IMG/VR virus record: IMGVR_UViG_2541047691_000012 | Reading direction: 5' to 3' (one strand) | Length of the DNA: 24,806 bases | From: a virus | Lineage: Duplodnaviria > Heunggongvirae > Uroviricota > Caudoviricetes | Shown here: in pieces, positions 1 through 20,014 of the stretch | Layout of the letters: each line of letters starts with the position of its first letter | How positions within the stretch are numbered: the first letter of the stretch is position 1 | The notes under the pieces: generated by a model | Seen by the model: the letters and a program-made list of their open reading frames with translations, nothing else | What the model was told of the DNA's origin: nothing | Databases searched by the model: none | Translations under genes and position numbers: made by a program

Positions 1-1566
1 TCATGCTGCCCTTACGATGTAATTAAACGTAATATTACGAGGACGAATGGTTACATAATTAACCCCATCACCTCGTGAAGGCCCTGCAAATGAAAAACGG
101 GAAAAGCCTGGTTGGTTAGAAACAATTTGGTCATAGTTATTGATTGAATGACCAGACCCAATGTCGAAATTACCTCCGTAATGAGAAAAACTTGTACCAT
201 CCTGCCCTGAAAGCAGGGTACGTCCCGCATCAATCCCGCGCCCATCATCCCAGCCACGGATAAATTCACCGCGTAAATCCGGTAATTTATTGGTGGGATA
301 AGCCCTTGCCAGTCTGGGATACATTTCAGAAGAAAATGCTGCACCGTTACATTTCAGCCAGCCCGTTGGTGGTGTTGCTGAGGACCACGGAACGGGCACA
401 CCAACGGGCAGTGCAGAGCCTTCCCCCAAACCAAGGTAATCAAGAACTCCCTGAGTGCTGGTTTTACCAAGAATGGCACGTCCAACACTTGTCAACGCGG
501 TTAACGCGGCACGATCTGCCCCTGTAAAATATGGGAGTTTATCTGCTGATGTAGCAAGCTCTGCCAGCGCCGTCAGGGTGGCATCCTTCGGTTGCTTACC
601 CGCAAGCGCGTTAGTCATGGTGGTCGCAAAATTCGGGTCATTGCCCAGCGCCGCAGCCAGTTCGTTCAGCGTGTTCAGTGCATCAGGTGACGAATCTACA
701 AGTGCGGCAATCGCGGCCATAACGAAAGCCGTGCTTGCGATCTGGGTACTATTAGTCCCCTGTGGCGCTGTTGGTGTTGTTGGCGTTCCGGTCAGTGCCG
801 GGCTGTTTAATGGTGCTTTCTTGTTCGTTTCATCCATTACCGCCTTAACAGCTTTTGGTGTCGCTGCCAGCGTTTCAGACGTGCTGTTCGTGGCGCTACT
901 GAGCTGAACAATCCCTTTTTGTATAGTGGTGGCGTTCTGGGCGGTATATTTCCCGTTAGCCAGGTCATATGCAGCCTTAACCGCTTTCGGTGTTGCGGCC
1001 AGTGTTTCTGATTCACTGTTAATTGCACTGCTTAACTGAGTAAAACCTTTTGCGGTCAGCGAGGCGTCCGGGTGACGTCGTGACTGTTCGTGCTCTGAGA
1101 TTTTATCATCCACATATTTGCGGGTTGCCAGAACCACAGACGGGTCGATTTTCAGCGTGATGGCTTCGGTGTTCGTGACAACCAGAATCATGCGGATAGT
1201 CTGGGTGCGTCCACTGCCTTCCTGCAACTGCGGTTTGTACGTTTCCGGGCAGTTTGCCACCGCAATGAGTACACCTTCATCATCATAAAGACCAATCTCA
1301 CGGATCCAGAATCCTCCCTCGTTTTCAGGGATGATTTGCTCCGCAATAATCTGGCTCTGATTGTTAGGGTCAACACTCAGAAGATTCAGCGGTGCAATGC
1401 GTTTCTGGTTAATCAGTTTTGTTTGTGCAGGGTCTGGTGTTGGTAACACACCATTTGCATCACCAACGGCCATTTGCGTCAGATTCAGCTTACTGCCGAG
1501 CATCGTCGCGTTAGCCAGTCGTGCCGCGCCCTGATTAGTCAGAATGGCGTAGTATTTCACTGTCAT
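1..1566 (-). CDS. H: Tail fibre protein (P2 gpH-like); conserved N-terminal baseplate-attachment region, internal tandem repeat, C-terminal tail-collar-like domain
   Basis: 521 aa ORF, stop at 1-3 (tca on plus). The N-terminus (MTVKYYAILTNQGAARLA...MAVGD...GGFWIREIGLYDDEGVLIAVAN...HEQSRRHPDASLTAKGFTQLSS) closely resembles my recollection of P2 gpH. The C-terminus (GWLKCNGAAF...LPDLRGEFIRGWDDGRG) looks like a phage tail-collar domain. Synteny with baseplate genes immediately upstream. Confidence 0.85.
   Translation of the reverse strand: MTVKYYAILTNQGAARLANATMLGSKLNLTQMAVGDANGVLPTPDPAQTKLINQKRIAPLNLLSVDPNNQSQIIAEQIIPENEGGFWIREIGLYDDEGVLIAVANCPETYKPQLQEGSGRTQTIRMILVVTNTEAITLKIDPSVVLATRKYVDDKISEHEQSRRHPDASLTAKGFTQLSSAINSESETLAATPKAVKAAYDLANGKYTAQNATTIQKGIVQLSSATNSTSETLAATPKAVKAVMDETNKKAPLNSPALTGTPTTPTAPQGTNSTQIASTAFVMAAIAALVDSSPDALNTLNELAAALGNDPNFATTMTNALAGKQPKDATLTALAELATSADKLPYFTGADRAALTALTSVGRAILGKTSTQGVLDYLGLGEGSALPVGVPVPWSSATPPTGWLKCNGAAFSSEMYPRLARAYPTNKLPDLRGEFIRGWDDGRGIDAGRTLLSGQDGTSFSHYGGNFDIGSGHSINNYDQIVSNQPGFSRFSFAGPSRGDGVNYVTIRPRNITFNYIVRAA
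838..1044 (-). repeat. Internal tandem repeat inside the tail-fibre gene (two ~25 aa units QLSSA(I/T)NS(E/T)SETLAATPKAVKA)
   Basis: Protein residues ~177-199 and ~221-243 are near-identical; the matching nucleotide blocks at ~970-1044 and ~838-912 are visibly similar. Confidence 0.5.
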
Positions 1567-2204
1567 GCGTTTACTCTCAGATTATCAATTAAATGAATGG
1601 CCGGGGCAGGGAAATAATCCCCTTCGACAATAATGGACTCCGGGGTGTAGGGATAAACCGTCAGGGCATCGCCGTGATAGCATCCCGTACCAACGAAAAT
1701 CTTTCCGTTCACACTCAGGCTGATCGCCAGCCCCGTCAGATGGCGACTTACTGGTTTTGCATCCGCAATAAGGCGCTCAAGTTCCTGATACATTTCATCG
1801 GTGATGCCCTGATCAAGTACTCCGACAACAATGCGAAATGTTCCTGGCTCCTCGTTGAGCTGCCACCACTCCTTTACTTCAATCAGGTAGCCGAGAGGCT
1901 CCACGGCTCTTCGCAGTGCGCTGATGGTCCCTTTGTGTCGGTGTATCAGCCATGCATCACGAATTACCTGTCGCTTTGTCTCTTCCGGCCAGTTGCGATC
2001 CCAGCGGTCAACGGAAAATGCCCAGGCGAGATAAGGCAGCAGGTGCACCGGGCAGGTGTCCGGCGACCACAGCGTGTTGAGGTCTACCGGGATGTCTGTA
2101 ATGCGCGTTCCGACAGCTTCGGCACAACGCATGAAATTGCTGGCTGATGGCGGTAACAGTGAATTACTCATTACGCCCACCTTCGCTGATGGTGAATGAC
2201 TCAC
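1563..2204 (-). CDS. I: Baseplate assembly / tail protein I (P2 gpI-like)
   Basis: 213 aa ORF between J and H homologues, overlapping H by 4 nt (translational coupling). Position and size fit the gpI family. Confidence 0.75.
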   Translation of the reverse strand: MSHSPSAKVGVMSNSLLPPSASNFMRCAEAVGTRITDIPVDLNTLWSPDTCPVHLLPYLAWAFSVDRWDRNWPEETKRQVIRDAWLIHRHKGTISALRRAVEPLGYLIEVKEWWQLNEEPGTFRIVVGVLDQGITDEMYQELERLIADAKPVSRHLTGLAISLSVNGKIFVGTGCYHGDALTVYPYTPESIIVEGDYFPAPAIHLIDNLRVNA

Positions 2205-3060
2205 AGCGCGCCGCCTGTATGTCGCTGATGGACATATTCTGTGTGGGTTCGATTATCTCCACGCGTTGCACACCGTGCACATGCAGTGCGGCAGCAATGG
2301 CGGACAACGCCACGTCCTGACCGATAAGCCCCTGTTCAGCCAGCCACTTCCTGAATGACGATTCCGCCGCGGCCAGAATAGGTTCGGATTCCGGACCGGG
2401 GTAAAAGTACAGTTTTGCATTCAGCCGCCATGTCACGATGCTGGCGCTCTGTACGGTCAGGCGGTCGGCCACCGGGCGGGTATCCTCTGCATTCAGAACG
2501 GCGCGAACGGTATTAAGCAACGCCTCCGTTGCCGTGCCGTCGCCTTCAGTGGACAGGATGGAAACCGTCACATTTGCCGGAGACGGACTGATAGCCCGCG
2601 CATCACGCACCAGACCGCTGGCGCTGCGGGCAAAATACTCGTATGCACCTGACGGGCCAGCAACACTCAGGCCGTCGTACGCCCGCTGCGCCCGCAGTCT
2701 CAGCGAGGTGTCGCTCTCCATCACCGCGTCGGTGGTATCCGTTGCCGGAGTGATAACCAGGCGCTTTGTGTTCATATTGCCCGCGAGGTTGTCCAGGTTT
2801 GTCCCTGAACCGTGGCTTAACATGCAGGCGCGTGCGCCCTCGTTAACCCGCTGGCGTAACAGCATTTCACGAAACGACATGGTTTGAGCGATAACGTTCA
2901 GGGGTTCTGATTCCAGCTCCAGCGCGGCGGAGACGGCTTCACGCTGTTCGGCAGGATAGGACGCAATCATCATGGCCTTTGTGTCAGCCAGAATTGCCTC
3001 AAAATCAGGCTCCGCGATGATGGCGGGTTCCGGTAACTGGGAAAGGTCAACAGCAGGCAT
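2164..3060 (-). CDS. J: Baseplate protein J (P2 gpJ-like)
   Basis: 298 aa (P2 gpJ is ~300 aa). Located between W and I homologues; its 3' end overlaps I. Confidence 0.8.
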   Translation of the reverse strand: MPAVDLSQLPEPAIIAEPDFEAILADTKAMMIASYPAEQREAVSAALELESEPLNVIAQTMSFREMLLRQRVNEGARACMLSHGSGTNLDNLAGNMNTKRLVITPATDTTDAVMESDTSLRLRAQRAYDGLSVAGPSGAYEYFARSASGLVRDARAISPSPANVTVSILSTEGDGTATEALLNTVRAVLNAEDTRPVADRLTVQSASIVTWRLNAKLYFYPGPESEPILAAAESSFRKWLAEQGLIGQDVALSAIAAALHVHGVQRVEIIEPTQNMSISDIQAARCESFTISEGGRNE

Positions 3061-3063
3061 GAT

Positions 3064-3414
3064 TTACTCTCTCAGCGTGATGGTTAATTCAACATTCTGC
3101 ATGGTCTGCATAACAGTGCCCGACAGCGTCACCCCGGCGCGGCCTCCTGCCTTCCAGACAACGTCGATAGCGTCCAGGGCAATGCGGGGTTCCCATCGTG
3201 TCAGCGCAATCACGGCAGCACTCATGCATTGCAGACGCGTGGTGTTATTCATGGGTTCGTCAATCAAATCAGGCACAAGGCTGCCATATTCCCGTCGCAT
3301 AACCCGGCTTGCCAGCGGGGTGGTCAGGATGTCCCTGACTGACTGTTTCAGGTGCTCCATATCGTTCAGGTTTCCCGTCCCGTCCGGATTCATTCCTGTG
3401 TAGCGGGTTGTCAC
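3064..3414 (-). CDS. W: Baseplate protein W (gpW/gp25-like)
   Basis: 116 aa (P2 gpW is ~115 aa). Directly downstream of the V homologue with a 4 nt overlap. Confidence 0.8.
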   Translation of the reverse strand: MTTRYTGMNPDGTGNLNDMEHLKQSVRDILTTPLASRVMRREYGSLVPDLIDEPMNNTTRLQCMSAAVIALTRWEPRIALDAIDVVWKAGGRAGVTLSGTVMQTMQNVELTITLRE

Positions 3415-3992
3415 TGCGGGCCTCCTGTCGAATCGCTGCCGCCTTTCACGCCACCGTGTTTATGCGTATGCACTGTGATGCCGTTTGAGGTGAAGTTGCC
3501 GCCGCTGTGCGTGATATTGCCGCTCATCTTTCCTCCTTTTGTGACGTCAAGCGTCGCCGTTCTCAGAAGGTTTGTGCATTCCACGACGGGCGTATCCAGT
3601 TTCACGCTGACGGATGCCTGTAAAGTGGCCGTTTTAATGCCGCTGGCGCTCAGTGCGCCTGCGTCCGCGTCGTAGCGGAACACCGCGCCGTCCGGCGCGC
3701 TGATCACGATTTCTTTCAGGCTTTTGCCGGGGGCCGGATTGGCATCACTCCACAGGCTGCCAATTATCATGGCGGTTTCCGGGTTGCCGCCAATGCAGGC
3801 AATTACCACCTGTTCGCCCACTGATGGCGGCAGCCACACATTGAAGGCTCCCGCGCGCGTGGTGTTCCAGCGCAACCAGCCTGTTTCCAGTTCGCCGCTG
3901 CGAACGCGCACGCGCCAGGACTTCTCATCAACTTCAGAGATGATCCCGGTGCGGATGATATTGCTCAGCAGTCGCATGAGTTCTGCGCTCAC
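3411..3992 (-). CDS. V: Baseplate spike / assembly protein V (P2 gpV-like)
   Basis: 193 aa with a Gly-rich C-terminal tail (HTHKHGGVKGGSDSTGGPQ). Position V-W-J-I-H is conserved. Confidence 0.8.
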   Translation of the reverse strand: MSAELMRLLSNIIRTGIISEVDEKSWRVRVRSGELETGWLRWNTTRAGAFNVWLPPSVGEQVVIACIGGNPETAMIIGSLWSDANPAPGKSLKEIVISAPDGAVFRYDADAGALSASGIKTATLQASVSVKLDTPVVECTNLLRTATLDVTKGGKMSGNITHSGGNFTSNGITVHTHKHGGVKGGSDSTGGPQ

Positions 3993-5361: not shown

Positions 5362-5629
5362 CTTTTGCAATATCGTTGCGTAGCTGTTCACGTCTTACCT
5401 CTCCGTCCTGATTGCGTTGCTGATTTTCCACGCGGAGTTGCGCCAGCACCTGCTGCATATCCTGTACCCCGGCGCTGATGATATTCAGGGTGTCGGCGGT
5501 ACTTTTCAGGGTGCTGGCCTGCGCTTCGTTTCTGGCGTTCTCCCGGCCCAGCGACCACGACAGACGCATGGATGTTCCCCATCCGGCAATCAGAAGGAAA
5601 GCGACGCCAAGCGTGGGCCAGAGCTTCAT
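5222..5629 (-). CDS. Inner-membrane spanin (Rz/LysB-like)
   Basis: N-terminal TM helix (MKLWPTLGVAFLLIAGWG) then a charged, coiled-coil-like periplasmic region. The ATG at 5629 overlaps the endolysin stop (ATGA). The longer track ORF (to 5773) would overlap the endolysin out of frame. Confidence 0.6.
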   Translation of the reverse strand: MKLWPTLGVAFLLIAGWGTSMRLSWSLGRENARNEAQASTLKSTADTLNIISAGVQDMQQVLAQLRVENQQRNQDGEVRREQLRNDIAKDECAHALPDARFTDRLRRHAERATASAVSPAYTADADHTGNASPLP

Positions 5630-6018
5630 GCCGGATAGGCTCCGTGTGGTAACTGAAAATGCGGTCCGTCTTTCAGAGTCTTCCAGTCGCCGCCCCATTC
5701 CACCGGAATATTCAGTTCCCGGCTGGCCTGTCTGAATGCTGCTGCGATTTTTTCGTACAGCGGCCATTCCCATGACACCTGGCTGCCGATATAAGCCACA
5801 ACATCCACGGCATGCCCCGTAAGGTGGCGGCTGTTCATGGTCTGGCTCTTACCCGTGGCCACCAGTTGCTTCTGGCGGTAACGGCTGCGCAACCCTTCGG
5901 TGATACCAAAATCCACTTCCGAGATTTCCAGTGCCCGTCGGGTCACTTTCACCAGATCAGGATTTACGCCCTGCAAATTCTTTTCGCTCCGGCTGCTGAA
6001 TTTAAATGTGTTGCTCAT
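5626..6018 (-). CDS. Endolysin, peptidase M15-type (zinc D-Ala-D-Ala / L-Ala-D-Glu peptidase fold)
   Basis: 130 aa with SRHLTGHAVDV, an H-x6-D zinc-binding motif typical of M15 peptidases. Strong SD (AAGGAG) upstream of the ATG. Sits between holin and spanins. Confidence 0.75.
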   Translation of the reverse strand: MSNTFKFSSRSEKNLQGVNPDLVKVTRRALEISEVDFGITEGLRSRYRQKQLVATGKSQTMNSRHLTGHAVDVVAYIGSQVSWEWPLYEKIAAAFRQASRELNIPVEWGGDWKTLKDGPHFQLPHGAYPA

Positions 6019-13766: not shown

Positions 13767-14726
13767 TTACTCCTTGTCCATTGCGTACAGCCCATTAACC
13801 AGAGCAAACTGTGGCACCCCGTCCGCGATGAAAGTCGCATTAACTCCGCAGGCTTCGCGGATAGCGGGTGCCACAATCTCCGCCCCTCCACCGACAACCA
13901 TCACCCGCCCGTAACCCGAAAAACCCGCCAGCGCGCGGATCACGCGTTGTTTCAGTGTTTCTTCCTTTTCACGAATAACCGCCATCAGGCTGGCGTAATG
14001 CGCGTCATTGTGGATGTGCTGGCGCAGCCAGGCTTCATCATGGCGATGTTCGATAATGGTATTGGCGATGTGGTGACTGGTGCGCATACCGTTAGTGGCC
14101 ATCACCGACAGTACGGCATCGGCCATCAGAGAAACGCCTACGTGTGGATCGCAAAACACCTGGCTGATACCTGCCAGTTGCCCCTGAACCTTTGCCACAT
14201 CCAGCGTGGTTCCGCCCAAATCCACAATCAGCAGGGATTCAAACGGACTCATGTCAGCCAGTGCTTTAAAGCCAGCCGGAATGGATTCAGGCATAACCCG
14301 CACGTTACGGATAGTGAATGCTTCGCCGTTCTGGTACTCCACCGGGCGCATAACGTTCGCTTTTTTGCGGTTGATGTTGGCCATGTCCGGCTGTGCGTTT
14401 GTGTCGAAATACTCGCTCAGTGGCAGGGTAACAACCACATCCACCTCCTGTGGCGTGATGCCTGATTTGACCAGCGCGTGATGAATGGCAATGACATTCA
14501 CATCGCTGTACTGGTATTGCGTGTCGGTCGTCTGGACAAAGCGATCGCTGACCGGATCAAAACCATAGCGCACGCCATCAAGCATGTAGTTTGCGGGCTG
14601 CGTGCCACCGAACGGCGCAGACCATTCCGACTTGAAACTGTTCGGGCTGATGGCGTTGCGGCGTTCGCCGTTCTCAGTCCATGCCAGCTTGATGTTGGTG
14701 GAGCCGTCGTCGATACAAATTTTCAT
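13767..14726 (-). CDS. parM: ParM/StbA-family actin-like segregation ATPase
   Basis: 319 aa. MKICIDDGSTNIKLAW...ISPNSFKSEW...YQYSDVNVIAIHHAL...KANVMRPVEYQNGEAFTIRNVRVMPESIPAG...LLIVDLGGTTLDVAKV...MVVGGGAE closely parallels my recollection of R1 ParM (MLVFIDDGSTNIKLQW...ISPNSFKREW...WQYSDVNVVAVHHAL...VKVMPESIPAG...LLIIDLGGTTLDIS...VMVIGGGAE). SD AAGGA upstream. Confidence 0.9.
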   Translation of the reverse strand: MKICIDDGSTNIKLAWTENGERRNAISPNSFKSEWSAPFGGTQPANYMLDGVRYGFDPVSDRFVQTTDTQYQYSDVNVIAIHHALVKSGITPQEVDVVVTLPLSEYFDTNAQPDMANINRKKANVMRPVEYQNGEAFTIRNVRVMPESIPAGFKALADMSPFESLLIVDLGGTTLDVAKVQGQLAGISQVFCDPHVGVSLMADAVLSVMATNGMRTSHHIANTIIEHRHDEAWLRQHIHNDAHYASLMAVIREKEETLKQRVIRALAGFSGYGRVMVVGGGAEIVAPAIREACGVNATFIADGVPQFALVNGLYAMDKE

Positions 14727-17631: not shown

Positions 17632-17997
17632 TTACTTCGTCATACCGTTGAGGGTGTCACGGCAAACGGCAGCCAGCCGCTGAATTTCCAGCACGGTGTC
17701 TTCTGTGTCGGCATGGCGATGTGTGATGCGGATGCTGTCGGCAATCACATCGACGATTGCAGAGGATGGGCGCTGGTAAATGCCAATAACGGACGGGGTG
17801 CCACCTTCAATGCGGTAAAGCCTGTAATTTCCCTCGTGGCTGTCAATCATGTAGCGACCATCAATAACAATCTTTCCGTCAGCGAGCTGCGGTACAGGCA
17901 GGGATTTCAGGTACATGTCATAACGATCACGCACGCGAGCGGCAAGATCACGTTCTGTGTTGAGCAGATATTCAAGAAAGTCGTTGGCGAGAATCAT
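17632..17997 (-). CDS. Hypothetical early-region protein (121 aa) immediately upstream of A
   Basis: ORF with no overlap, 6 nt from the A start. Function not recognised. Confidence 0.5.
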   Translation of the reverse strand: MILANDFLEYLLNTERDLAARVRDRYDMYLKSLPVPQLADGKIVIDGRYMIDSHEGNYRLYRIEGGTPSVIGIYQRPSSAIVDVIADSIRITHRHADTEDTVLEIQRLAAVCRDTLNGMTK

Positions 17998-18069
17998 TGC
18001 GGCAATCCTCTTGTTACAGATGTGCGAAGGCCTCCCGCCGCAAGGTGCAGGAAAGGCCCGGAACAGGAA

Positions 18070-18300
18070 TTAATGGAGTTTGTTTTGCTGCTGGATGAGC
18101 TTTTGAAGCTCGCGCAGATCATCTGCCAGATAGCTGAAAACAGAGGCGGAATAGCTGTTCGATAGTGCGTGACTGCGTTCATGCAGCATATTGATGTGCA
18201 TGATATGCGCGACGCGGAATGCGCGGAAAAGTCTGCGGTTGATTTCAGTCTGGATGTGACGACGCTCCGCGATAGCGCGGTGCTGTTTGCGGTTTGCCAT
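18070..18300 (-). CDS. Hypothetical small basic protein (76 aa)
   Basis: ATG with a strong SD (AAGAGG, 9 nt spacing). Arg/His-rich N-terminus. Function not recognised. Confidence 0.5.
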   Translation of the reverse strand: MANRKQHRAIAERRHIQTEINRRLFRAFRVAHIMHINMLHERSHALSNSYSASVFSYLADDLRELQKLIQQQNKLH

Positions 18301-18476
18301 GGTGTGGCCTCTTTGGTTGTAAGTTTTGAAAACTCACCATCCAGAGCTGCGAAACTGTGGGTGGCGAGACGTACGGGGTTCGCAGTACCGGCAACCAAAG
18401 AACCCGGCCCGACCGAAGTCGGCCCCGTACGCCCCGCCATAATTCGTGTGCGAAAAAGACGTGGCAATACAGTACG

Positions 18477-18500
18477 CACAAAAAAACCGCTGGCGCGGTT
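18477..18500 (-). terminator. Intrinsic terminator inside the structured region (AACCGC-GCCA-GCGGUU followed by a U-run)
   Basis: Minus-strand reading: aaccgcgccagcggtttttttgtg; short GC stem followed by a U-run of at least 5. Confidence 0.45.
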
Positions 18501-18638
18501 GTGCGCTTTGGTTGTCAGCAGGCTGCGAAACCCGGCACCCGTTTTATGAGGTGCAGCGGAAATGTAACCTGACTGATTGCGGCATGGCAAGCGGTTTTTT
18601 TGTGAGAACGGCATACTAAAAAAAATCCTGATACTGCT

Positions 18639-18663
18639 CCGGCCAGCGATTTTCACTGGCCGG
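18639..18663 (-). terminator. Stem-loop 7 nt downstream of the SPFH gene stop (ccggccag...ctggccgg)
   Basis: 8 bp perfect stem with 9 nt loop; a U8 run follows 13 nt later on the minus strand, which is further than ideal. Confidence 0.35.
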
Positions 18664-18669
18664 GTTTAA

Positions 18670-19494
18670 TTACTTCACCGGAACAAACGGAACAGCGGTG
18701 TTGCTGGTCATGTATTGCGGCAGCGTGCCGTTCCATTTGTTGATTGCTTCCAGCTCCATAACGCCGGGATTCTGGCGCAGAGCTTCACCGCGTAAACGAA
18801 TGGCGTCGGCTTCAGCCTGGGCTTTTGTGCGAATGGCATCAGCCTGTCCGGCAGCTTCTGCGCGCAACATGTTGGCTTCTGCTTCGCGTTGCTTGACTTC
18901 CTGTTCGCGTTGCAGGGTTTTCTGGTTTGCCGTGACTTTGGCGTTAATGCTGTCGATAACGGTTGGCGGATATTCCGGTTTACCGACATAAGAGAGGCTC
19001 ATGACCTGAATGCCGATAGGTGTCATTTCTGACTGAATGTCTTTAAGTGCTGAATCCAGCAGTTCAGACTTGCCACCGTCGATAAACTTATCGGTGGTCA
19101 TTTTGCTGGCCAGTCGGTTGAGTGCATCGGCGATCTTCTGGCGCAGGTCAGTGTCGGTAATGTCATCCACGCCTTTGCGGTAGGTCTGAAACACAGTGGT
19201 AACTTTGGATGGATCAACTTTGTAGGCCACGCCGATGTGATAGCCGATGGTTGTGCCGTCACTCATCTGGAAGTTGAACGGCTCATCGTAAGTCTTCATT
19301 TGTTTGAAAGTCGGGAAGATGTAAACCTCTGTATTCCAGCCTGTCCAGTAGCGGCCAACGCCAACTACTTCACCGACGCCTTTATCGTCGCCCAGTTTGT
19401 TGACTTTGATGCCTACATTGCCCGGCTCCACGCGGTCACAGCCAACCAGAAGTGTGGTCATCAGGAGAGGGATGAGTGGTAATAGTTTTTTCAT
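18670..19494 (-). CDS. SPFH/band-7 (prohibitin/stomatin-like) lipoprotein
   Basis: 274 aa. Signal peptide plus lipobox (MKKLLPLIPLLMTTLLVGC). Core and C-terminal Ala/Glu/Arg/Gln-rich coiled-coil region (QREQEVKQREAEANMLRAEAAGQADAIRTKAQAEADAIRLRGEALRQNPGVMELEAINKW) typical of SPFH proteins. ATGA overlap with the upstream small membrane gene. Confidence 0.8.
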   Translation of the reverse strand: MKKLLPLIPLLMTTLLVGCDRVEPGNVGIKVNKLGDDKGVGEVVGVGRYWTGWNTEVYIFPTFKQMKTYDEPFNFQMSDGTTIGYHIGVAYKVDPSKVTTVFQTYRKGVDDITDTDLRQKIADALNRLASKMTTDKFIDGGKSELLDSALKDIQSEMTPIGIQVMSLSYVGKPEYPPTVIDSINAKVTANQKTLQREQEVKQREAEANMLRAEAAGQADAIRTKAQAEADAIRLRGEALRQNPGVMELEAINKWNGTLPQYMTSNTAVPFVPVK

Positions 19495-19703
19495 TGTTTG
19501 GTTTCCATAATTGCTTTGATGTAGTTACTGAAAAAGCGAACAACGCCCGCCGGGTACAGCAAGGCGACAAAAATGCCCAGCAATACCAGGAAGGAGCTGT
19601 CTGATGAAATCATTCTGGGAAGTAGCCCCACATACAGAATGAGAGAAACGAGGACGCATACCAGCGCCCACATGTATGCGCGAAACCAGGTCTTTTTGTT
19701 CAT
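19491..19703 (-). CDS. Small two-helix membrane protein (70 aa), translationally coupled to the SPFH lipoprotein gene
   Basis: Two hydrophobic segments (WALVCVLVSLILYVGLL and FLVLLGIFVALLYPAGVV). SD AAAGGA upstream. Its stop overlaps the SPFH start. Confidence 0.6.
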   Translation of the reverse strand: MNKKTWFRAYMWALVCVLVSLILYVGLLPRMISSDSSFLVLLGIFVALLYPAGVVRFFSNYIKAIMETKQ

Positions 19704-19714
19704 ATCGCGGTCCT

Positions 19715-20014
19715 TTACTGGTTAAGGAAAAAATCAAAAACCTTGTCGATGCGTTGCAGTAGCTCTCGTTGCATTGTTTCCGGCGTTTCTGGTTCACCAG
19801 GCGAACCCAGTGGTGCGCAGAAATCAGCGATTTCATGATGGAGCGTCAGGCGAATGGCTGGAGCCATGGTTCTGGCGTGCTCCAGCTCATCCAGCAGTGC
19901 CAGCACAGCAGACGGCGAGAGCATTGCGCGAAATGCCAGTAATTTTTGAGGTGTTGCCATTCGTTGCAGGGCAAATGCCAGTTCGCGTAGCTTCTGGTGG
20001 TTGATGGTGCTCAT
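19715..20014 (-). CDS. Hypothetical protein (99 aa)
   Basis: ORF whose start overlaps the stop of the upstream 88 aa gene (ATGA). Function not recognised. Confidence 0.5.
   Translation of the reverse strand: MSTINHQKLRELAFALQRMATPQKLLAFRAMLSPSAVLALLDELEHARTMAPAIRLTLHHEIADFCAPLGSPGEPETPETMQRELLQRIDKVFDFFLNQ

Follow-up and report, generated by a model that had tools for sequence, protein, structure and literature searches.

Gene structure of the pair

The locus described here lies in IMG/VR virus record IMGVR_UViG_2541047691_000012 (Duplodnaviria; Heunggongvirae; Uroviricota; Caudoviricetes), a stretch of 24,806 nucleotides (nt) that is a P2-type prophage of the P88 group (Xuanwuvirus) and that is called the window below, always at its full length. 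On the minus strand of the window, a gene for a 70-amino-acid (aa) protein with two transmembrane (2TM) helices (19491..19703) is followed by a gene for a 274-aa lipoprotein of the SPFH/Band-7 superfamily (18670..19494). The stop codon of the first gene overlaps the start codon of the second by 4 nt (ATGA, 19491..19494; the plus strand reads tcat), an arrangement indicating that the two are probably coupled in translation. The first-pass annotation, made from the letters alone, had described an ATGA-coupled pair of a double-TM protein and an SPFH lipoprotein at this place, and coordinates, overlap, Band_7 domain and lipobox all agreed with that description. Both genes are real and well beyond chance open reading frames (ORFs), and the pair recurs with the same type of junction in hundreds of diverged loci. 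A good Shine-Dalgarno sequence (AAGGA) lies 7 nt 5' of the start codon of the partner gene, and this start is situated 11 nt past the stop codon of an Ead-like gene.

Profiles of the PHROG database were matched by both products (phrog_1130 by the 70-aa protein, phrog_200 by the lipoprotein), the two genes being adjacent on the same strand, and the motifs of the pair family were all present, i.e., the lipobox Cys and the C-terminal K-W-[ND]-G-x-L-P of the lipoprotein and the P-x3-S turn of the partner. The family to which the pair belongs as an ordinary member (P88 gp11/gp12; phrog_1130/phrog_200) is known and annotated and has no assigned function. In phage P88 (NC_026014), the same genes occupy the same site in the same type of phage, annotated as a 'membrane protein' (gp11, YP_009113054) and a 'lipoprotein' (gp12, YP_009113055), with no essential difference from the window: the mature SPFH protein is 99% identical at the aa level and the partner 86% (70 aa in the window vs. 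67 aa in P88), while the signal peptide is only 50% identical.

The SPFH lipoprotein

The 274-aa protein matched Pfam Band_7 (PF01145) with an E-value of 5.8e-31 and 108.3 bits (cut-off 23.6) over residues 21-207, in line with the profile match expected from the first-pass annotation, and phrog_200 with an E-value of 3.8e-111. A lipoprotein signal peptide (MKKLLPLIPLLMTTLLVG-C19) forms the N-terminus, containing the lipobox L-V-G-C19 and followed by an Asp at position +2. Across 94 family sequences the lipobox Cys (C19) was conserved in 86, and W254, G256, and P259 were kept in 94, 94, and 90, respectively; these three residues belong to the C-terminal family motif K-W254-[ND]-G256-x-L-P259, after which only a flexible tail follows. 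The +2 residue differs among the same 94 sequences, being T, D, S, or E.

An AlphaFold2 model built from 94 homologues (predicted local distance difference test score, pLDDT, 91.9) assigned residues 19-174 to the SPFH alpha/beta domain and residues 177-241 to a 65-residue helix, which corresponds to the long coiled-coil tail previously noticed in the sequence; a short helix at 243-253 and the flexible tail come after it. The model combines the elements by which the SPFH superfamily is recognized, namely the alpha/beta fold, the long coiled-coil helix and a C-terminal segment. A Foldseek search with the full-length model retrieved HflK/C (7vhq) at an E-value of 1e-13 and also prohibitin, erlin, stomatin, flotillin, and QmcA, the matches to cage-forming SPFH proteins ranging from 1e-13 to 1e-8 over 245-300 alignment columns; with the family profile, the nearest solved structures were prohibitin (1e-10) and HflK (5e-8). 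The NCBIfam equivalog cut-offs for HflK and HflC were not reached (HflC 26.4 bits vs. 134.4; HflK 22.6 vs. 159.4), and the tandem paralogous SPFH genes with TM anchors that characterize HflK/HflC are replaced here by a single gene with a lipoprotein signal peptide.

In several records the SPFH gene is called 'serine protease', 'transposase' or 'transposase fusion protein'. The first of these labels is an annotation carry-over, the protein having no protease domain.

The two-helix partner

Almost the whole of the 70-aa protein is membrane helix, with two hydrophobic helices joined by a four-residue turn. The N-terminal end carries a net charge of +3 and the C-terminal end one of +2, against 0 for the turn, and both ends should therefore be cytoplasmic (predicted topology N-in/C-in). 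The turn, predicted to be periplasmic, reads L-L-P29-R-M-I-S33-S-D-S in the window. The turn shared by a set of 27 partner sequences is P-x-[LM]-[IV]-S-[SA]-x-[DS]-[ST], and conservation of P29 and S33 reaches at least 90% among 23 partners with a mean identity of 26%. The hairpin was modelled at a pLDDT of 86-89 in a homologue that is a natural fusion.

The protein matched phrog_1130 (E-value 2e-21) as its sole PHROG family and had no match among Pfam families. A word-index homology search with it returned only 15 close relatives, and the family was revealed by genomic context together with a custom hidden Markov model (HMM) built from 27 partner sequences. The NfeD-like partner that the first-pass annotation had proposed to look for by profile search could be ruled out, as none of the 23 partner sequences matched the NfeD models (PF01957) even at E-values up to 1 and the 70-aa partner has no OB-fold domain; NfeD survives only as a loose analogy. 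Identity as a holin or part of a lysis cassette was likewise rejected, both by the scan of holin families, in which one of 23 partners matched at an E-value of 0.17 and the others gave no match, and by position, since the phage's own lysis genes (holin PF05106, 6015-6353; M15 endolysin, 5626-6018) lie 12 kb away.

Distribution and linkage of the two genes

Relatives of the SPFH protein were found with tblastn in 626 of 50,697 phage records. Their carriers comprise temperate phages (phi1026b and the SSU5 phage-plasmid) and lytic ones (N4-like Schitoviridae, rV5-like Vequintavirinae, FelixO1-like phages, LUZ24-like Bruynoghevirus, and phiCbK), while more distant relatives occur in crAss-like phages, Lak phages, Staphylococcus Kayvirus, and haloarchaeal viruses. 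The pair is common in obligately lytic phages (see also PMC8540360).

The partner HMM was significant in 147 of 194 diverse loci, and in 139 of the 194 the match stood just upstream of the SPFH gene. For the 114 viral loci the corresponding figures were 79 significant matches, 73 of them directly upstream on the same strand, with 17 further weak matches, 15 of which held the same upstream position; when the loci left over were inspected, most showed the motif, the HMM-negative viral clusters still having a two-helix ORF with it. For the 80 loci from bacterial species genomes, where the scan for the pair used a 7-sequence alignment, 68 were significant, 3 of them in-frame fusions, and 66 had the match directly upstream. 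The commonest junction in the 79 significant viral pairs was the 4-nt overlap (36), followed by overlaps of 8-17 nt and gaps of 1-9 nt (12 each).

In about 20 of the 150 best cluster representatives the two genes form a single protein, in which the partner comes first, then the lipobox helix and then the SPFH domain, and one of these fusions, from a 30.6-kb phage-like contig, was confirmed to be a single unbroken ORF. Given this order and a hairpin with both ends in the cytoplasm, the lipobox helix would therefore export the SPFH domain, which would face the periplasm.

In addition to phages, the pair is an ordinary chromosomal locus in Dyella and Leptospira. In four Dyella species (L222, L227, L239, and L241 among the compared loci, ~2700-3870) it stands between blaR1/blaI-like and hemerythrin/ribonucleotide-reductase genes, and in two Leptospira species (L265 and L271, ~2700-3870) between succinate-dehydrogenase genes (sdhA/sdhC) and an EAL-domain gene. 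Within each of the two genera the flanking genes are conserved, and these syntenic copies are non-prophage. Such an ordinary chromosomal locus implies a cell-autonomous membrane function that was picked up by phages. On the recurrence in other prophages or defence islands that the first-pass annotation had proposed to check, the pair was seen in Stx2-converting phages and in hundreds of loci, and lytic phages and bacterial chromosomes carry it as well.

Some arrangements depart from the common one. The rV5-like phage 4MG (L088, 2087-2442) has a 54-aa ribbon-helix-helix-like ORF between the partner (gp235) and the SPFH gene, and the LUZ24-like phage TL (L086, 1783-2440) has a tail-anchored 72-aa protein (gp11) encoded between the partner gp10 and the SPFH gene gp12. 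In P0144, a metagenomic representative protein of 344 aa, the order is reversed, the SPFH lipoprotein being followed in frame by the 2TM part with the turn VPTLISSSAT; this may reflect read-through, a recoded stop codon, or an alternative gene order.

Accessory status and mosaic history

A three-way alignment with P88 and PV468777 showed that pair-bearing and pair-less P88-like phages are separated by an indel of ~1.09 kb (18606..19693, minus strand), referred to below as the module, which is flanked by the 7-nt direct repeat ACAAAAA (minus strand; junction regions 18600-18612 and 19690-19703); the repeat is compatible with gain or loss of the module by microhomology. Across the module the window is 100% identical to E. 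coli strain 89-3156, and across the pair region it is 92% identical to phage P88 at the nt level. The start codon and ribosome-binding site (RBS) at 19701-19715 are common to pair-bearing and pair-less phages, and in the pair-less relatives (vB_EcoM-569R5, vB_EcoM-705R2, PV468777, P884B11, and the Citrobacter phage Shae_phiSM) the same ATG and RBS open a 21-codon ORF that reaches into isrK (L002, 3000-3015). With the module inserted, the start codon and the rest of this 21-codon leader ORF are no longer contiguous.

Its accessory status places the pair outside the phage backbone, as had been proposed when it was first described as cargo foreign to the P2 core. The backbone flank was present in 874 of 5,426 complete E. 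coli genomes and the whole module in 145 of these 874. Nor does the pair belong to a backbone conserved in all related phages, as the module was missing in 5 of 9 phage records, three of which aligned in two pieces with a gap of exactly the module while the other two cover a different span. An SPFH gene of this type was present in 393 of the 5,426 genomes (about 7%), including 34 plasmid locations. A variable hotspot with alternative cargo was also considered and found no support, the alignments of the pair-less relatives showing no such cargo at the site.

An SPFH gene that is ~92% identical at the nt level lies beside int/xis in Stx2-converting phages and phiP27, where it bears the label 'serine protease'. 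Across P88-type and lambdoid modules, the mature SPFH proteins are 95-99% identical at the aa level, the signal peptides 37-50% and the partners 20-86%; when only P88-type modules are set against lambdoid ones, the values are 95-97%, 37%, and 20-42%, respectively. The mosaic breakpoint falls at the lipobox (window 18670-19494 vs. L003 2643-3470 and L064 4001-4828). In records of an Stx2 phage (L003, 3467-3655, minus strand) and of phiEaP8 (L087, ~2250-2400, plus strand) the 2TM partner ORF is present without annotation, and the record of phiP27 has a matching intergenic gap (L005, upstream of 3307).

Position in the early operon and expression signals

The integrase and the C-type repressor are encoded on the plus strand at the right end of the window. 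From the cox-like gene the early operon runs leftward on the minus strand through genes for DUF4761, DUF4754, a winged-helix protein, the Ead-like protein, and the pair, and continues beyond the pair with the isrK and C4 antisense RNAs, the 'derepression protein', an ORF of unassigned function, gene A, and a ParM homologue. The pair shares its direction with cox, gene A, and the remaining early genes and lies in the phage early region, where the first-pass annotation had placed it.

No sigma-70-like site was predicted upstream of the partner gene by consensus prediction, which is weak evidence; the nearest predicted sites stand in front of isrK and C4 only, downstream of the module. The same weak method predicted no promoter of its own for the module in two lambdoid contexts either. 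Phage TL has an annotated sigma-70 early promoter in front of its partner gene gp10. The start codon and RBS of the pair in the window are those of an ancestral ORF of the early operon, and no promoter of its own is predicted, so that expression in the lysogen is not indicated. Lysogenic conversion or defence by the prophage would require such expression.

Proposed function

We consider the pair to be a self-contained, optional membrane-scaffold module, in which a periplasmic SPFH cage on the inner membrane would be made during the lytic cycle and would condition the membrane. To this package as a whole we assign a rough probability of 0.55, most of the weight lying on its architecture; its localisation, cage, timing, and role are what we infer, next to the observed gene structure, family, fold, partner conservation, accessory status, and distribution.

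Under this reading, the 274-aa protein would be exported and lipid-modified at Cys19. Asp at position +2 leads to inner-membrane retention in E. coli (Lol sorting), and the protein would most likely stay in the outer leaflet of the inner membrane owing to its Asp +2. Every SPFH protein with a solved full-length structure oligomerises into a membrane-seated assembly; the lipoprotein would do so via its long helix and the C-terminal K-W-N-G-x-L-P segment, and the oligomer would form a closed dome over the inner membrane on its periplasmic side, in the orientation of HflK/C and the prohibitins. The 70-aa hairpin would sit in the same membrane, with only its P-x3-S turn reaching the periplasm and touching the lipoprotein; made in step with the lipoprotein via translational coupling, it could be an integral-membrane subunit that anchors or nucleates the cage, or else an enclosed client. 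Transcription of the pair would come with that of the early lytic operon, and no expression is predicted from a repressed prophage. Its role would be to condition or insulate the inner membrane of the infected cell during lytic development, corralling or shielding a membrane patch or a host machine, and blocking of secondary DNA entry may be a side effect or an alternative. The occurrence in lytic phages and the chromosomal copies of Dyella and Leptospira favour a generic membrane-organising function over a prophage-specific defence device.

Several points weigh against this account. Cage formation, sorting to the inner rather than the outer membrane, and contact with the partner are all extrapolated. 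The consensus promoter prediction is weak, and expression in lysogens from a non-consensus promoter or by read-through is possible. The combination of 95-99% identity in the mature SPFH protein with 20-86% in the partner appears to argue against a tightly co-evolving interface beyond a small motif, and the variable +2 residue (T, D, S, E) may mean that localisation differs between hosts. In the literature, where our search for a functional study of a phage SPFH protein found annotation-level mentions and speculation only, members of this SPFH subfamily are mentioned with a role called unclear (PMC8540360, PMC13239085) or with speculation (PMC7150955), and a few SPFH peptides were detected in a preparation of a Vi01-like phage (PMC10892097). 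Finally, a prophage-encoded HflK/C-like protein of Pasteurella, which may or may not be kin to the lipoprotein, has been reported as expressed, shed in vesicles and necessary for virulence (PMC9872710).

A bolder form of the scaffold reading, which we regard as doubtful, would make the pair a distinct class of membrane-microdomain cage that is as yet undescribed, that arose in bacterial cells (Dyella, Leptospira) and that was repeatedly captured by many lytic and temperate phages to protect the inner membrane of the infected cell. If this were true, the cage could guard against premature depolarisation by membrane-targeting abortive-infection effectors or by mis-triggering of the holin, or else it could seal the membrane against superinfecting DNA, and in both cases it would represent a general, structure-based and non-enzymatic counter-measure or exclusion device.

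Comparison with known SPFH systems

With HflK/HflC-FtsH (7vhq, 7wi3, 9cz2) and the prohibitins (8rrh, 9o9z), the lipoprotein shares the SPFH domain, the wall helix, the C-terminal cap segment and, as far as its orientation can be predicted, a position of the SPFH domain on the non-cytoplasmic side of an energy-transducing membrane. The identity is ~15-17%, however, and the SPFH protein of the pair is lipid-anchored and encoded by one gene, whereas theirs are TM-anchored and heterodimeric; the partner is a 70-aa hairpin and not a protease like FtsH.

The SPFH-NfeD operons (QmcA-YbbJ, 8z5g; YqiK-YqiJ; archaeal stomatin-STOPP) resemble the pair in having a small membrane gene directly upstream and co-expressed, with a partner probably in or under the cage, and QmcA was among the Foldseek matches. 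They differ in that the partner of the pair lacks the NfeD/OB-fold domain and that QmcA faces the cytoplasm, while the SPFH domain of the pair is predicted from its signal peptide and lipobox to face the periplasm.

In the YdjG/YdjH-YdjI (SamGHI)-PspA system of B. subtilis, small membrane proteins recruit an SPFH protein for protection from membrane stress, which makes it a precedent for a protective scaffold role (PMC8581546; bioRxiv 10.64898/2026.02.06.704340). YdjI is cytosolic and acts with PspA, whereas the window holds no PspA-like gene, and no sequence relation of the partner was seen, no dedicated comparison having been made. Kayvirus MbpS (Staphylococcus phage K group) is likewise a phage SPFH membrane protein (26% identity by tblastn); it is encoded in a lysis-gene neighbourhood and has been proposed to aid secretion of the Tgl lysin (PMC7150955), whereas the pair in the window lies 12 kb from its own holin and endolysin.

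SPFH genes are among the commonest recognizable yet unexplained phage genes, and this large subfamily, which seems always to be accompanied by its two-helix partner, joined by a 4-nt overlap or fused, offers experiments a concrete two-subunit unit that is predicted to face the periplasm. The finding may be useful to students of SPFH scaffolds or of phage accessory genes, and it sets right annotation errors that recur in the records (the labels 'serine protease' and 'transposase fusion protein', and partner ORFs left without annotation).

Alternative explanations

The first-pass annotation had taken the pair for cargo serving superinfection exclusion, abortive infection or lysogenic conversion. 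The cargo part of this claim stands, while the part concerning defence or conversion found no support in matches to defence or exclusion families or in predicted promoters. Among the explanations of this kind, the one that survives best, although we judge it unlikely, is superinfection exclusion or abortive infection, in which the cage, the 2TM protein or both would block incoming phage DNA at the inner membrane; in a variant, the 2TM protein would be a pore-forming effector restrained by the SPFH scaffold. The usual makers of exclusion are small inner-membrane proteins and lipoproteins, such as the exclusion proteins T4 Imm/Sp, HK97 gp15, P22 SieA, T5 Llp, and Ltp. As an accessory element the pair is mobile among unrelated coliphages (the SPFH gene being ~92% identical at the nt level between P2-type and Stx2/phiP27 lambdoid phages), early expression would suit exclusion in lytic phages too, and in both size and topology the 2TM protein is like a class II holin. 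However, neither protein matched the defence models of PADLOC-DB 2.0 at E-values up to 0.1, which rules out identity with a known defence system on this test, and in the PHROG scan, a test of sequence, the partner matched phrog_1130 only and the lipoprotein phrog_200 and fragment families, none of them annotated as exclusion. No holin family of Pfam was matched above noise in the 23 partners, and the phage has its own holin and endolysin 12 kb off. Moreover, the mature SPFH protein is highly conserved and not diversifying, syntenic copies stand beside housekeeping genes on the chromosomes of Dyella and Leptospira, and no promoter was predicted for expression in the lysogen. A prophage defence or conversion device is less likely because of the distribution in lytic phages and on chromosomes, the lack of a predicted promoter, and the lack of a match to defence models; superinfection exclusion during lytic growth is a possible role.

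Somewhat less probable still is a mimic of HflK/C, i.e., a periplasmic cage that would enclose or compete for FtsH or another inner-membrane machine and so alter the turnover of membrane proteins of the phage or the host and, in temperate phages, the balance between lysis and lysogeny. By profile and fold, the nearest relatives are indeed prohibitins and HflK/C, non-cytoplasmic-side SPFH proteins that cage AAA proteases, and the predicted orientation matches. The role of HflK/C in the lysogeny of lambda is established. It has also been offered as a suggestion for phage SPFH proteins (PMC8540360). The scores, however, remain well under the equivalog cut-offs (26 vs. 134 and 23 vs. 159 bits), and where HflK/C has two SPFH genes and N-terminal TM helices in contact with FtsH, the pair has a single SPFH gene and a lipid anchor. 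Lytic phages, which have no lysogeny decision, carry the pair as well, and P2-type phages are not known to have a CII-like FtsH substrate.

A lipoprotein of lysogenic conversion or virulence, expressed from the prophage and altering host-pathogen interaction or the envelope from the cell surface or in vesicles, is improbable: an HflK/C-like SPFH protein from a Pasteurella multocida prophage is reported to occur in vesicles, trigger TLR1/2 signalling and contribute to virulence (PMC9872710) and Stx2 phages of pathogenic E. coli often carry the SPFH gene of the pair, but that protein (PM0222) is no more than a candidate relative of the subfamily, Asp +2 predicts inner-membrane retention in E. 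coli, no promoter was predicted, and the pair is common in lytic phages and environmental bacteria.

Neighbouring elements

Directly past the stop codon of the SPFH gene and inside the inserted module, an 11-bp GC-rich hairpin (18640..18664, minus strand) is followed 12 nt further by a U8 run. Its folding energy is -26.4 kcal/mol (z -3.5), and none of 200 shuffled sequences folded as well. The hairpin may be a transcript-end or stabiliser element; a canonical intrinsic terminator was ruled out by the distance of the U-run and by its absence from the output of the terminator scan.

Further along the minus strand, isrK (18480-18554, Rfam, 66 bits) and C4 antisense RNA (18357-18444, Rfam, 87 bits) lie back to back with a sigma-70-like site before each, and the 'derepression protein' ORF (18070-18300) comes after them. 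Together they look like a P1 immI-like, RNA-controlled antirepressor unit within a P2-type early operon. A 220-aa ORF (17994-18656) that spans the isrK/C4/derepression region is probably spurious. Directly 3' of the replication gene A, a full-length ParM-type actin-like segregation protein is encoded on the minus strand (13767-14726; PF06406, E-value 1.8e-82; PF21523, E-value 1.3e-68) in what is an integrating P2-type phage.

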